From the UHGV virus genome UHGV-0069955: 12,124 nucleotides of DNA. One strand, written 5' to 3'. This stretch comes from a virus. The notes under the pieces were generated by a model. It made no database searches and was not told the origin of the DNA. It saw nothing but the letters and a program-made list of their open reading frames with translations. Positions 4,571 to 11,293 of this stretch are shown one piece after another. Numbering within the stretch: the first letter of the stretch is position 1; each line of letters begins with the position of its first letter. Made by a program: the position numbers and the translations under genes.

Positions 4571-5194
4571 CTATGCGGACTCGGAAGGAAGTCCAATCAT
4601 CTTATTCAAATCTTCTACCCGTAAAGCAGGAAGTGCTGTACTTGCTTTGTCTGCTTCTTTTGGTAGCAATTCTTTGCTTTCAGGCCAAACTTCAATAAGT
4701 CGCTTAACTGTTGTGACTGAGTTCAAAGCAGCCCATACATTTGATTCGATATCCTTTTTCTTGGCTTCAAGTTTTTGTTGCAATGCGCAGATTTCATCAA
4801 ACCTTTTTGTTATTTCGTGTTCTGCATCAAACATGCATTTATCTTTGGTTGGAGTAGGGAGCAATATATCTTCGCCGTTGCCGTCTTTCCCATATGAATG
4901 CCATCCAACCCTTCTGCCAGATACAGTCAGATAAATTGAAGTAGAACGAACATCGTATGAGTAAAATGAACATCCCATCTTTTCAAGTTCTTCACTTATA
5001 GCTACTAACCTGGATGATAACTGATCCACTTCCTCAGTTTTCTTTTTACCGCCAAACGCAATAACTCTGGCGTCAAGTGCAAGCTGGTTCTTTAACTTTG
5101 TTACTTCTTCAAGTTCAGTGAAAACCCCAGACTTAATTAAAGCGTTACGAGCGATTTTCTCTTTCATTCTCGTAGTTAAGCGGATTGATGACAT
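4571..5194 (-). CDS. Hypothetical low-GC accessory (moron) protein, 207 aa from ATG at 5194
   Basis: Strong GAGAGGAA Shine-Dalgarno 5 nt upstream of the ATG at 5194 (track's 5209 start is TTG). Visibly AT-rich relative to the lambda-like flanks. Translation MSSIRLTTRMKEKIARNALIKSG... is Lys/Glu-rich with no motif I recognise. Confidence 0.6.
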   Translation of the reverse strand: MSSIRLTTRMKEKIARNALIKSGVFTELEEVTKLKNQLALDARVIAFGGKKKTEEVDQLSSRLVAISEELEKMGCSFYSYDVRSTSIYLTVSGRRVGWHSYGKDGNGEDILLPTPTKDKCMFDAEHEITKRFDEICALQQKLEAKKKDIESNVWAALNSVTTVKRLIEVWPESKELLPKEADKASTALPALRVEDLNKMIGLPSESA

Positions 5195-5251
5195 ATTAAT
5201 TCCTCTCAAATAAGTGGTTTGCTGCGAAAGTAAATACGCTTAAGTTACCTG

Positions 5252-6165: not shown

Positions 6166-6522
6166 TTAGTGAGGTAGTGATGGCATCATTTTTATTATTA
6201 ACCCAACACCAGTTCCAACGGCTGCAAGAACTGAACCAATAATAGCCATGGCTTGGAGTCTCATTGCGCTGTGAAGTTCTGCTTTTGCATTAGCTATGTC
6301 TGTTTTAACAGATTCTACATTGGCAGATGTTGCATAGTTAGACTTAATTACAGCGATGTCGGTCGCCATGGTTGCGACTTTATCTTCAAGAATTTTTATG
6401 CGCTGTAACATGTCACCACCTCCACCGTTACCACCACCATATGTCTCATCATTATGGTGGTTATGTGGAAAATTATCAACTTTACTCCTGTCAAGAGGCA
6501 CAGCGTACAGATGTCGTTTCAT
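6166..6522 (-). CDS. Hypothetical tail-anchored membrane protein, 118 aa (gene B of the cI-linked cassette)
   Basis: N-terminal His/Gly-rich low-complexity stretch (NFPHNHHNDETYGGGNGGGGD), central amphipathic/coiled-coil-like segment (MLQRIKILEDKVATMATDIAVIKSNYATSANVESVKTDIANAKAELHSAMRLQ), and one C-terminal hydrophobic helix (AMAIIGSVLAAVGTGVGLIIKMM). ATG at 6522 overlaps the gene A stop (ATGA). Confidence 0.55.
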   Translation of the reverse strand: MKRHLYAVPLDRSKVDNFPHNHHNDETYGGGNGGGGDMLQRIKILEDKVATMATDIAVIKSNYATSANVESVKTDIANAKAELHSAMRLQAMAIIGSVLAAVGTGVGLIIKMMPSLPH

Positions 6523-6959
6523 TCCTTATCTCTGTTCGGGGTGGTTGAAATAAGAGCGCATTTTTTTTCATCAATAACTTCGCTAAGATTACCATCAATG
6601 TCTTCAAAGATGCGATAAATTATGTCATATGTTCCTGTTTCTATAAGTTTGATGTTTTTAACGAAAAGATATGTGCCAACCACAACATATTTTTCATTGA
6701 CAGGAGAAAACATAAATGTTTGCAGTTGCTCTTGATTGCTAGAGATATCAGGTAAAACCGATTCTCCATTGAATACGACATCAAGTTCGGTAGTGTATTT
6801 TTTTTCGTGCTCGAAGTACATTATTGCAGTTAGGTAAAATGAGCCGGAACAAGGGTATTCTTCCGACACTATTATAGGATCTGGTGTCATAAAAGGAGTG
6901 ATTGCCAGCCCGGGTTTTACCGCCGTTGTGTAGATTGTTATTATTTTTTCTTCTCTCAT
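6519..6959 (-). CDS. Hypothetical soluble protein, 146 aa (gene A of the cI-linked cassette)
   Basis: ATG at 6959 with an AAGGA Shine-Dalgarno; starts 18 nt after the cI stop codon, so probably co-transcribed with cI. Very AT-rich coding sequence. No hydrophobic helix; beta-rich-looking composition. Confidence 0.6.
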   Translation of the reverse strand: MREEKIITIYTTAVKPGLAITPFMTPDPIIVSEEYPCSGSFYLTAIMYFEHEKKYTTELDVVFNGESVLPDISSNQEQLQTFMFSPVNEKYVVVGTYLFVKNIKLIETGTYDIIYRIFEDIDGNLSEVIDEKKCALISTTPNRDKE

Positions 6960-6977: not shown

Positions 6978-7694
<717 letters not shown>

Positions 7695-7701
7695 TTAAAT
7701 C

Positions 7702-7767
7702 TATCACCGCGAGGGATAAATATCTAACACCGTGCGTGTTGACTATTTTACCTCTAGCGGTGATAAT
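7702..7767. promoter_or_regulatory. Right operator/promoter region: OR3 (7702-7718), OR2 (7725-7741), OR1 (7749-7765), with pR (+) and pRM (-)
   Basis: tatcaccgcgagggata, taacaccgtgcgtgttg, tacctctagcggtgata. pR -35 ttgact (7739-7744) and -10 gataat (7762-7767) are 17 bp apart. cro Shine-Dalgarno aaggagg lies at 7780-7786. Confidence 0.85.
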
Positions 7768-7782
7768 GGTTGCATGTACTAA

Positions 7783-7992
<210 letters not shown>

Positions 7993-7999
7993 ATAACCC

Positions 8000-8031
8000 C
8001 GCTCTTACACATCCCAGCCCTGAAAAAGGGC
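8000..8031 (+). promoter_or_regulatory. nutR: nutR (boxA 8000-8009, boxB 8017-8031)
   Basis: cgctcttaca (boxA) then gccctgaaaaagggc (boxB hairpin), immediately downstream of cro. Confidence 0.8.
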
Positions 8032-8094
8032 ATCAAATTAAACCACACCTATGGTGTATGCATTTATTTGCATACATTCAATCAATTGTTATCT

Positions 8095-8140
8095 AAGGAA
8101 ATACTTACATATGGTTCGTGCAAACAAACGCAACGAGGCT
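8095..8140 (-). promoter_or_regulatory. pRE-like CII-dependent promoter (leftward) spanning the cII start
   Basis: Minus strand carries TTGCGTTTGTTTGC (complement of 8120-8133), the TTGC-N6-TTGC CII-binding direct repeat at -35, as in lambda pRE. Confidence 0.55.
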
Positions 8141-8404
8141 CTACGAATCGAGAGTGCGTTGCTTAACAAAATCGCAATGCTTGGAACTGAGAAGACAGCG
8201 GAAGCTGTGGGAGTTGATAAGTCGCAGATCAGCAGGTGGAAGAGGGATTGGATTCCAAAGTTCTCAATGCTGCTTGCTGTTCTTGAATGGGGTGTCGTTG
8301 ACGACGACATGGCTCGATTGGCACGACAAGTTGCTTCGATTCTCACCAATAAAAAACGCCCGGCGGCAACCGAGCGTTCTGAACAAATCCAGATGGAATT
8401 CTGA
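8111..8404 (+). CDS. cII: CII transcriptional activator (lambda-type), 97 aa from ATG at 8111
   Basis: MVRANKRNEALRIESALLNKIAMLGTEKTAEAVGVDKSQISRWKRDWIPKFSMLLAVLEWGVVDDDMARLARQVASILTNKKRPAATERSEQIQMEF matches lambda CII. Track's 8051 start is an upstream extension. Confidence 0.92.
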   Translation: MVRANKRNEALRIESALLNKIAMLGTEKTAEAVGVDKSQISRWKRDWIPKFSMLLAVLEWGVVDDDMARLARQVASILTNKKRPAATERSEQIQMEF

Positions 8405-8426
8405 GGTCATTACTGGATCAATCCAC
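8350..8426 (-). ncRNA. oop: oop-like antisense RNA overlapping the cII 3' end
   Basis: Region 8350-8426 closely matches the complement of lambda oop RNA as recalled; its 3' end is a GC-rich hairpin (8357-8376) followed on the minus strand by TTTTTTAT. Exact ends inferred by analogy with lambda. Confidence 0.5.
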
Positions 8427-8436
8427 AGGAGTAATT

Positions 8437-8598
8437 ATGACAAAACGTCGTAAGAAATACCAGGAAAAAGAAGAGATTCGACACCCTGATTCACCTGAGG
8501 GATTAGTGGTAGCCGCAGCAAATAACAGGGCGTTCGCAGAGCGCCTTGTTGGTGTTTACAGACTAGCCAAAGCAGGAGTGAAACATGGGCGTCGTTAA
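8437..8598 (+). CDS. Small basic hypothetical protein, 53 aa ([53 protein letters not shown])
   Basis: Not in the ORF track. ATG at 8437 with an AGGAG Shine-Dalgarno, in the position where lambda O starts. Its 3' end overlaps the O start by 14 nt in another frame. Confidence 0.35.
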   Translation: MTKRRKKYQEKEEIRHPDSPEGLVVAAANNRAFAERLVGVYRLAKAGVKHGRR

Positions 8599-9406
8599 GT
8601 TAGCTGATTACAGGCCTCAACTGGAGGTCGTGGAGCATCGCGTGGCAGATACCGAAGATGGTTTCATGCGCGTTGCTAACGAGATTACCGACAGTCTGCT
8701 GATGGCTGATTTAACCGTCCGGCAGTTGAAGGTGATGCTCGCTATCATGCGCAAGACATACGGATTCAATAAGCCGATGGATCGACTCACAAACACGCAG
8801 ATAGCAGCCATGACAGGTATTCATCACACTCATGTTTGCGCTGCCAAGCGCCAGCTTATTGAGCGTAAATTCCTCATTGCTGATGGCGTGAAAATCGGAG
8901 TGAACAAGGTGGTTTCTCAGTGGATTAGCCAGGACAGCTTAACATTAGCTAAAACAGCTAATAAAACATTAGCCAAGTCGGCTAATGGGTATAAGCCAAG
9001 TCAGCTAAACACAAAAGACAATATACAAAAGACAATAAATACAAATACCCCCTTACCCCCTAACGGGGGCGGCGATGGGCAGGTTAAACCTGAACGTCGC
9101 AAGGCAGAACGAATCGACTACGAATCCTTCCTGAACGCTTACAACACCGAAGTCGGTGACAGACTGCCACACGCTGTTGCGGTCAACGAGAAACGCAAAC
9201 GCCGCCTGAAGAAAATCATCCCGCAACTGAAAACGCCAAACGTGGACGGTTTCAGAGCGTATGTCAGGGCGTTTGTGCATCAGGCCAAGCCGTTTTACTT
9301 CGGAGACAACGACACGGGCTGGACGGCTGATTTTGATTACCTGCTGAGAGAAGACTCGTTAACGGGAGTTCGGGAAGGGAAGTTTGCAGACAGGGGGATT
9401 GCATGA
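8585..9406 (+). CDS. O: Replication initiator protein, O-like (273 aa)
   Basis: N-terminal ...[54 protein letters not shown] aligns with the lambda O iteron-binding domain (DDGYARLSNMLLEA...DLTKRQFKVLLAILRKTYGWNKPMDRITDSQLSEIT). C-terminal half differs from lambda O. AGGAG Shine-Dalgarno; stop overlaps the helicase start (ATGA). Confidence 0.85.
8924..9050. repeat. Candidate replication origin inside the O gene: four ~18-bp iterons (8924-9009) plus an A/T-rich stretch (9010-9050)
   Basis: attagccaggacagcttaa (8924-8942), cattagctaaaacagctaat (8943-8962), cattagccaagtcggctaat (8967-8986), tataagccaagtcagctaaa (8990-9009). Each has internal dyad symmetry TTAGCC...GGCTAA. Followed by acacaaaagacaatatacaaaagacaataaatacaaatacc. 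Same layout as ori-lambda but different iteron sequence. Confidence 0.7.
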
Positions 9407-10779
9407 GACAGGATATCGAAGCGAGCGTTATCGGTGGCCTGCTGATTGGTGGATTAACACCAACCGCCAGTGACGTTCTGGCAACGCTGGAGCCGGAAGC
9501 GTTTTCAATTCCGCTCTACCGGAAAGCCTTCGAGGTTATCCGCAAGCAGGCGCGAAACAGAAACCTAATCGACGCACTGATGGTTGCCGAGGCGTGCGGA
9601 GAGGAGCATTTCACGTCAATCCTGATGACCAGCAAAAACTGCCCGAGTGCCGCAAACCTGAAGGGATATGCCGGAATGGTCGCGGATAACTATCACCGCC
9701 GACTGGTGCTGGAAATCATGGATGAAATGCGTGAACCAATTCAGAGCGGAACCATCGACGCATCGAGTCAGGCGATGGATGAACTTGTAAAGCGTCTTTC
9801 AGCCATCAGAAAGCCCCGTGACGAGGTAAAACCTGTACGGTTAGGGGAAATCATTACTGACTACACTGACACGCTTGACAGGCGTCTGAGGAACGGAGAA
9901 GAGTCCGATACCCTGAAGACCGGAATCGAAGAACTTGATGCCATCACCGGAGGGATGAACGCGGAAGACCTGGTGATAATCGCTGCTCGTCCTGGTATGG
10001 GGAAAACCGAACTGGCGCTGAAGATTGCCGAAGGCGTTGCAAGCCGCGTTATTCCTGGTTCTGACGTCCGGCGCGGGGTATTGATTTTCTCAATGGAAAT
10101 GAGCGCATTGCAGATTGCAGAGCGAAGCATTGCCAACGCCGGGAGGATGTCGGTTAGTGTGCTGCGAAATCCTGCAGCGATGGATGACGAAGGCTGGGCG
10201 CGCGTTGCTAACGGCATGAGTCAGCTTGCAGATTTGGATGTATGGGTAGTCGATGCCTCGCGGTTATCGGTCGAAGAAATACGCTCAATCGCAGAACGGC
10301 ACAAACAGGAAAATCCAAACCTCTCACTCATCATGGTGGATTATCTTGGCCTGATTGAGAAGCCGAAAGCAGATCGCAACGACCTCGCAATTGCTCACAT
10401 CTCCGGAAGCCTTAAGGCGATGGCGAAAGACCTGAAAACGCCTGTGATCTCCCTAAGTCAGCTTTCGCGCGATGTTGAGAAGCGACCAAACAAACGCCCG
10501 ACAAACGCAGATTTGCGTGATTCAGGAAGCATTGAGCAGGACGCAGACTCAATCATCATGCTCTATCGGGAAGCGGTATATGACGAGAACAGTAGCGCCG
10601 CGCCATTTGCTGAAATCATCGTGACGAAAAACCGTTTTGGCTCGCTTGGTACGGTTTACCAGCGGTTCTGTAACGGACACTTTGTTGCATGTGACCAGGA
10701 TGAAGCCAGACAGATTTGCACAGCATCAAATGCACCTGCTGCGCGTGGCAGACGATATGCACAAGGGGCTGACGTATGA
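9403..10779 (+). CDS. DnaB-family replicative DNA helicase (458 aa)
   Basis: Walker [13 protein letters not shown], Walker B-like [11 protein letters not shown], and DnaB C-terminal motifs [42 protein letters not shown]-terminal domain resembles the DnaB N-terminus. Not a lambda P-type helicase loader. Confidence 0.9.
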
Positions 10780-10805
10780 CCATCTACATCACTGAGCTAA
10801 TAACA

Positions 10806-10836
10806 GGCCTGCTGGTAATCGCAGGCCTTTTTATTT
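10806..10836 (+). terminator. tR2-like rho-independent terminator
   Basis: ggcctgc (10806-10812), 8-nt loop, gcaggcc (10821-10827), followed by tttttattt. Matches the lambda tR2 region as recalled. Confidence 0.75.
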
Positions 10837-10852
10837 GGGGGAGAGGGAAGTC

Positions 10853-11293
10853 ATGAAAAAACTAACCTTTGAAATTCGATCTCCAGCACATCAGCAAAAC
10901 GCTATTCACGCGGTACAGCAAATTCTTCCAGACCCAACCAAACCAATCGTAGTAACCATTCAGGAACGCAACCGCAGCTTAGACCAGAATCGAAAGCTTT
11001 GGGCTTGCCTTGGTGACGTCTCTCGTCAGGTTGAATGGCATGGTCGCTGGCTGGATGCAGAAAGCTGGAAGTGCGTTTTTACAGCTGCATTAAAGCAGCA
11101 GGACGTTGTTCCTAACCTTGCCGGGAATGGCTTTGTGGTAATAGGCCAGTCAACCAGCAGGATGCGTGTAAGCGAATTTGCGGAGTTATTAGAGCTTATA
11201 CAGGCATTCGGTACAGAGCGTGGCGTTAAGTGGTCAGACGAAGCGCGACTGGCTCTCGAATGGAAAGCGCGATGGGGAGACCGGGCAGCATGA
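10853..11293 (+). CDS. ninB: NinB (Orf-family recombination mediator), 146 aa from ATG at 10853
   Basis: [68 protein letters not shown]... matches lambda NinB. Track's 10835 start is an upstream extension across the terminator. Confidence 0.9.

Follow-up and report, generated by a model that had tools for sequence, protein, structure and literature searches.

The replication genes closest to those considered here are annotated in the record of phage HK97 (AF069529) as gene 53, O (Gp54, 'similar to P22 Gp18') and P (Gp55, 'similar to DnaB'). A small open reading frame (ORF) lying between oop and the O-like gene of lambdoid phages has likewise been described already (Hayes et al. 2012, PMC3349717), in an alignment whose position 1 is the ATG of lambda O, or else that of a P22 orf48 or HK97 gp53 homologue; no function for the small ORF is given by these authors. 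We compared with these systems a stretch of 12,124 nt from the virus genome UHGV-0069955 (the whole stretch of DNA analysed, hereafter the window), with a focus on the replication module at positions 8437–10779.

We read this module, with a probability of roughly 0.9, as an 'initiator plus own helicase' module of the HK97/P22 type, set in a lambdoid prophage with lambda-type cI, cro and cII. It comprises three overlapping plus-strand ORFs, 8437–8598 (53 aa), 8585–9406 (273 aa) and 9403–10779 (458 aa), the coordinates given in an initial annotation of this DNA. Their products are 100, 99 and 99% identical to those of HK97 gene 53, O (gp54) and P (gp55), and gene order and overlaps are also alike (14 nt between gp53 and O, 4 nt between O and the helicase gene). 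A megablast search of 50,697 phage records matched 439 of them, with mEp213, HK544, HK446 and HK97 at the top (96.7–98.1% identity), and at least 80% of the module was found in 423 of 5,426 complete E. coli genomes, where the Prokaryotic Genome Annotation Pipeline (PGAP) names its products 'hypothetical protein', 'replication protein' and 'replicative DNA helicase'. By its sequence, the module is the usual set of replication genes in lambdoid phages of the HK97/P22 kind, annotated long since, known and common. Because the exact layout is annotated as HK97 gp53-gp54-gp55 and the small ORF has been published, the initial annotation was right but not new. The module represents textbook lambdoid mosaicism, common in E. 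coli and Salmonella prophages, Shiga toxin (Stx) phages included; it carries little weight as a discovery, and its value lies in the support it lends to a modular view of initiators and in gp53.

Initiator, putative origin and helicase

The ORF at 8585–9406 (plus strand) encodes an O-like replication initiator, built of a Phage_rep_O N-terminal domain, an origin-encoded linker and a P22 gp18-like C-terminal domain. Residues 19–113 match Phage_rep_O (PF04492; E 6e-33, 113.7 bits against a cut-off of 28.7), and the protein scores 97.4 bits against TIGR01610 (cut-off 45.5). Only residues 17–149 align with lambda O (42% identity), and the C-terminal half had no tblastn match in the lambda locus, whereas identity to P22 gp18 is 42% in the N-terminal and 62% in the C-terminal half. 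A search of PDB sequences with O returned no solved relative.

The next gene (9403–10779, plus strand) encodes a phage replicative helicase of the DnaB family, with 99% identity to HK97 gp55 and 90% identity to P22 gp12 over 458 aa. Both DnaB domains are present (PF00772, 49.6 bits; PF03796, 264.8 bits), a Walker A motif, GMGKT, is encoded at 9994–10008, and residues 5–428 align end to end with residues 33–458 of E. coli DnaB structures. With a DnaB-family helicase directly after O and no lambda P homologue, the locus is not a lambda O-P module. The initial annotation had proposed a lambda-O-like N-terminal domain pattern with a different C-terminal half, a full DnaB-family helicase in place of lambda P and an arrangement like that of P22 genes 18 and 12, and all of this agrees with the domain matches and identities above.

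Within O lie four 18-bp dyad iterons (8924–8941, 8944–8961, 8968–8985 and 8991–9008), identified by repeat analysis, with start-to-start spacings of 20/24/23 nt. They are followed by an A/T-rich, A-skewed stretch at about 9009–9048 (GC content 27.5% in 9000–9039), which carries the tandem pair ACAAAAGACAATAT/ACAAAAGACAATAA, a 14-bp repeat; the same pair occurs in P22, where rep_origin is annotated. The iterons encode O residues 114–142 and the A/T-rich part encodes the next 13 residues, together forming the inter-domain linker, as in lambda. Four iterons of about 18 bp inside O and an A/T-rich stretch behind them had been claimed from the outset, and both were recovered; of the claimed dyad TTAGCC...GGCTAA, only copy 3 is a perfect example, copies 1, 2 and 4 being imperfect. 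A degenerate consensus, ATWAGCYARNNCRGCTWA, matches only the four iterons in the window, against 0.01 matches expected from shuffled sequences, a count that is partly circular in that the consensus was derived from the iteron copies themselves. The clustering of the copies, and a spacing common to other phages, are independent of this circularity.

The spacing of 20/24/23 nt recurs in the annotated ori iterons of lambda, in P22, in ES18 and in two further loci (L011 and L012). The iteron sequences themselves fall into different types: ATCCCTCAAAA(C/T)GAGGGA in lambda and ES18, both of which have a lambda-type N-domain; ATTTACCAGATCGGTAAA, of the ATTTACC type, in P22; and ATTAGCCAA...GCTAA in the window and its closer relatives, whose N-domains are 63–78% identical. 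On these alignments, the iteron sequence changes from locus to locus in step with the O N-domain. This co-variation, together with the difference from the lambda and P22 iterons, supports the different origin specificity that the initial annotation had suggested. The iterons would be the binding sites for the O N-domain, and 9009–9048 the putative DNA-unwinding element of the origin. The comparison offers clean support for a modular model of O-type initiators, in which N-domain and iterons change together and in which iteron spacing, A/T-rich element and C-domain/helicase pairing appear as separate exchangeable units.

Two related loci depart from this layout. In one from Trabulsiella guamensis (L009, 995–1182) the P22-type iterons (TTTACCGAATCGGTAAAAC) number about seven and recur regularly every 24 bp, in place of four at 20/24/23, and the initiator linker is lengthened by TFTESVKQ repeats via the expanded origin. 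The other, in the Stx2a-converting phage Stx2_EH0505 (L104; LC616031, 1043–3587), encodes a chimeric initiator with an unrelated N-domain and 12-bp repeats of the CCGCACATGA type; its C-domain is 95% identical to that of the window's O from residue 144, with the joint exactly at the origin linker, which illustrates the origin as a recombination joint. No gp53 homologue lies upstream in this phage. A long insertion directly behind the Walker A GMGK leaves the helicase frame of this phage open; since it contains an LLGDGS motif, the insertion resembles an intein carrying a homing endonuclease.

The small protein gp53 and its partners

The ORF at 8437–8598 (plus strand) encodes a basic protein of 53 aa that matches PHROG 1331 (unknown function) end to end (E 1.4e-37, residues 1–53 to profile positions 1–53 of 53). 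Annotated members of the family are HK97 gp53, ES18 gp58, epsilon34 gp49 and g341c gp44; in some records, such as that of phage 2851, the small ORF is left unannotated, with O starting at the same ATG. A Shine-Dalgarno (SD) motif, AGGAG (8427–8431), lies 5 nt before the gp53 ATG, forming with its spacer an element at 8427–8436 (plus strand) that was read from the sequence and from an alignment with lambda, P22 and ES18. The ORF overlaps the start of O by 14 nt (8585–8598), and O has an SD of its own (AGGAG, 8574–8578). In alignment, near-identity to lambda runs through the 3' end of cII, the oop terminator, the SD and ATGACAAA, and then gives way to divergence; since lambda homology stops at ATGACAAA, gp53 uses the ribosome site and ATG of lambda O, and the window's O begins 148 nt further on. 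The good SD, the overlap with O and the position at the lambda O start are thus as first described.

A gp53-O fusion or frameshift was considered because, in some records, O alone is listed where gp53 matches; it was rejected, with no upstream start in the O frame and no slippery sequence seen at the overlap. Distant homology between gp53 and P22 orf48 was also dropped, as BLASTP gave no alignment and orf48 belongs to DUF2740, while gp53 has no Pfam match. A literature search on HK97 gp53 brought up nothing but unrelated proteins of that name, and the 'orf48' of PMC12373910 is not the P22 gene but a number in a library.

A protein search yielded 68 relatives of gp53, down to about 62% identity, in Escherichia, Salmonella, Cronobacter, Enterobacter, Citrobacter and Lelliottia, and a scan of one genome per species (GTDB) gave 17 loci, adding Serratia, Rahnella, Brenneria, Yokenella, Edwardsiella and others. 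All 17 of these further, divergent loci have an intact ORF of 52–55 aa with an ATG start, an SD-like purine-rich motif upstream and a 14-nt overlap with the initiator ATG (17 nt in the Rahnella loci). Nei-Gojobori ratios of non-synonymous to synonymous substitution (dN/dS) against divergent members range from 0.08 to 0.25, with a median of 0.15 (122 pairs), synonymous sites being saturated in several pairs. At codon positions 1/2/3, pairs differ on average by 0.24/0.16/0.51 over the whole of gp53 and by 0.22/0.10/0.53 in its helical part. The ORF is conserved, disposing of the doubt raised with the initial annotation that it might not be, and gp53 is, on this pattern of substitution, a real protein-coding gene under purifying selection. 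In an AlphaFold2 (AF2) model (mean predicted local distance difference test score, pLDDT, 70), the basic N-terminal tail (residues 1–20) is of low confidence and unstructured, followed by helices at 21–29 and 31–49.

In the 17 GTDB loci, ES18 and ENT47670, gp53 always directly precedes the initiator, which may be an HK97-type O, a protein with an O-type N-domain and another C-domain, or an unrelated initiator of about 296 aa. The gene after the initiator encodes a DnaB-type helicase, 29–100% identical to that of the window, or, in ES18, a T7 gp4-like primase-helicase; lambda P was not found in any of these loci. A scan of IMG/VR returned only loci with 100%-identical gp53, useless for dN/dS and useful for partner diversity: among 80 such loci, 41 have the unrelated initiator and 39 an O-type initiator. 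Where a helicase was detected it was always of DnaB type (about 30% identity in the group with the unrelated initiator, at least 90% in the O-type group), five of the 80 loci being too short or without a helicase match, and lambda P was present in none of the 80. The first ~10 codons of the initiator (window 8585–8615) and the 14-nt overlap travel with gp53 even before unrelated initiators, as in L008, L010, L013 and L015 (among loci L005–L023). From this shared start it follows that the mosaic joint lies inside the initiator gene, not between genes.

Two host labels among the GTDB loci deserve a remark. Gp53, O and helicase are 100% identical to those of the window in a locus labelled 'Bacillota bacterium MAG' (L007), and a lambdoid module with gp53 appears under 'Chryseobacterium sp.' (L010); both labels probably reflect contamination or mis-binned enterobacterial prophage DNA.

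A role for gp53 as a replication accessory or host-takeover factor for modules with their own helicase, acting for instance in helicase loading or in blocking host DnaB/DnaC, is possible, if still doubtful. It would fit the initiator and DnaB-type helicase behind gp53 in the 17 GTDB loci and ENT47670, the primase-helicase of ES18 and the consistent lack of lambda P there, a pattern with which the 80 IMG/VR loci, split between two unrelated initiator/helicase pairs, agree. Also in its favour, ES18 joins gp53 to a lambda-type O N-domain and lambda iterons, but has a partner other than P. The association could equally be one of linkage, however: plain linkage or shared ancestry of module boundaries could explain it, and the locus counts carry no phylogenetic correction. 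P22, with a 90%-identical helicase, lacks gp53, and neither homology nor structure gives a clue to a partner. A functional link between gp53 and modules that encode their own helicase is accordingly put forward as a tentative suggestion, and the more specific version, in which gp53 would be a dedicated accessory of own-helicase lambdoid modules (serving the phage's DnaB-type helicase as a mini-loader or chaperone, for example, or inhibiting host DnaB/DnaC) and would move with the first ~10 initiator codons as an independent mosaic unit, as a somewhat less likely one.

Readings in which the peptide itself is of no account fare worse. Were the ORF a mere leader, with ribosome passage coupling or regulating the translation of O, one would understand why nearly all loci preserve the stop/start overlap ATGGGCGTCGTTAA and its length of 14 nt, why the ORF inherits the strong ribosome site of lambda O, and why an unrelated small ORF (orf48, DUF2740) sits at this position in P22, as if any would do. 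But the amino acids are strongly conserved against saturated synonymous sites (the median dN/dS of 0.15), change in the helical part is far lower at codon position 2 than at position 3 (0.10 against 0.53), indels are whole codons and O has an SD of its own, making this improbable. Conservation for a cis-acting DNA or RNA element, such as pO, the promoter of oop, or an RNA structure, with the ORF incidental, is more improbable still. The putative pO –10 overlaps the ATG and the –35 would fall in codons 7–9 (PMC3349717), but pO explains only the first ~30 nt, whereas three-base periodicity and saturated synonymous sites extend over the whole ORF, and Rfam gave no match.

Several points weigh against the main reading, that of an 'initiator plus own helicase' module. 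The helicase scores below the NCBIfam cut-offs, both for TIGR00665 (DnaB equivalog; 339 against 385 bits) and for TIGR03600 (phage_DnaB; 316 against 499 bits), making it a diverged phage member of the DnaB family, not an equivalog of the cellular enzyme. Independence from host DnaB/DnaC is presumed from the biochemistry of P22 gene 12. As to an assigned function for gp53, the protein has no match in Pfam, NCBIfam or PADLOC, and a profile search of 1.84 billion protein representatives returned 24 proteins, all of 29–84 aa, with no larger protein containing gp53 and no remote family. With no family match and no distant relatives, any function given to gp53 is conjecture. Gp53 is nonetheless a widespread, strongly constrained protein in a well-studied region, and if it were a helicase accessory or an inhibitor of host replication, a classic replication system would gain a further component.

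Flanking early region and regulatory signals

The surroundings of the module are the early region of a lambdoid prophage. The minus strand encodes an Erf-like annealing protein, SSB, an HNH endonuclease and an N-like antiterminator. A cI-type repressor ORF of 237 aa (6978–7691) and a cro-type ORF of 66 aa (7792–7992) both appear near-identical to those of lambda, and cII is 99% identical to lambda cII.

On the minus strand at 8347–8427 lies an oop-like antisense RNA with its intrinsic terminator, recognised by near-identity to lambda and placed by means of the published coordinates, in which OOP spans –90 to –10 relative to the ATG of O or of the small ORF (PMC3349717). The terminator scan gave a stem from 8380 to 8353 plus a T-run, the RNA overlaps the 3' end of cII, and the region folds as two hairpins (z = –3.4); an Rfam scan of 7600–11000 at E ≤ 1 gave no match, the oop region included. 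On this alignment, the oop element marks the end of the lambda-homologous block. The –10 of pO would be the complement of 8434–8439 (CATAAT; ATTATG on the plus strand), overlapping the gp53 start, and its –35 would lie in gp53 codons 7–9, where ACCAGG is kept in the alignment of P22, ES18 and ENT47670. A sigma-70 consensus scan of 8000–11000 called no promoter, pO included, and pO is for this reason placed only by lambda homology (PMC3349717).

At the other end of the module, the gap between the helicase gene and ninB (10853–11293) holds an intrinsic terminator-like hairpin with a T-run at 10805–10835 (plus strand), found by terminator scan, of which the hairpin (10805–10828) is strong, with 8 pairs, 6 of them G-C. 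Lambda has tR2 at this point, and the P22 annotation shows a lambda-like terminator at the equivalent site.

Further afield, two minus-strand ORFs of 146 aa (6519–6959) and 118 aa (6166–6522) take the place of rexA/rexB, directly downstream of cI. Pfam and PADLOC gave no match for either of them; the 146-aa ORF has no PHROG, and the 118-aa ORF has weak matches only, to PHROGs of unknown function. In a megablast search of the 50,697 phage records with 6166–6959, only the flanks matched, with at most 6% covered. The pair may be a moron or defence cassette expressed from the prophage. In the early-left region, a 212-aa protein (4571–5209, minus strand) has a full-length Nmad5 domain (PF18757, nucleotide-modification-associated; 243 bits) and belongs to PHROG 1965 (unknown function).

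Proposed replication scheme and comparison with known systems

In the scheme we propose, transcription from pR would continue beyond cII across gp53, O and the helicase gene as far as the tR2-like terminator. Gp53 would be translated from the ribosome site of lambda O, and with the O start 14 nt before the gp53 stop and an SD of its own, translational coupling is possible. The N-terminal winged-helix domain of O would bind the four dyad iterons within its own coding sequence and distort the adjacent A/T-rich stretch; its gp18-like C-terminal domain would then recruit the phage's DnaB-type hexameric helicase, so that the lambda P/host DnaB route would not be needed, and host primase and polymerase would take over. 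Iteron binding, unwinding and helicase recruitment are proposed here by homology to lambda O and to P22 gp18/gp12. Gp53 would be, as a best guess, an accessory or host-directed factor for own-helicase modules.

Lambda shares with the window the cII-oop-SD-ATG block, a Phage_rep_O N-domain (42% identity) and an origin that is part of the initiator gene, in which four dyad iterons, identically spaced, stand ahead of an A/T-rich region. It differs in the C-terminal half of O, in having the P loader where the window has a phage DnaB-type helicase, and in its iterons (ATCCCTCAAAACGAGGGA), which are unlike those of the window; the window also has an extra 148 nt (gp53) between the lambda-type ATG and the start of O.

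The Salmonella phage ES18 (gp58-gp59-gp61) resembles the window in its small protein, gp58 being 94% identical to gp53 in the same position and with the same 14-nt overlap, and in an initiator that opens with the same 11-residue peptide as the window's O. Thereafter the two part: the ES18 initiator has a lambda-type N-domain and iterons and a C-terminal half that matches neither that of the window's O nor that of lambda O, and its partner is a T7 gp4-like primase-helicase.

In P22, the order orf48-gene 18-gene 12 is alike, with a small ORF overlapping the start of an O-like initiator followed by a DnaB-type helicase, and the origin is alike too, with four iterons at 20/24/23 and the same tandem A/T-rich repeat pair. 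However, the O N-domain is only 42% identical, the P22 iterons are of the ATTTACCAGATCGGTAAA type against ATTAGCCAAGTCGGCTAA in the window, and orf48 (DUF2740) is unrelated to gp53, with only its position in common.

The differences from HK97 lie outside the module. Upstream, HK97 cII is only 35% identical to that of the window, which is lambda-type; downstream, HK97 has gp56/gp60 before ninB, whereas the window goes on to ninB after the terminator. Within the module, HK97 has the same three genes in the same order and with the same overlaps, at 100/99/99% protein identity and about 97% DNA identity.

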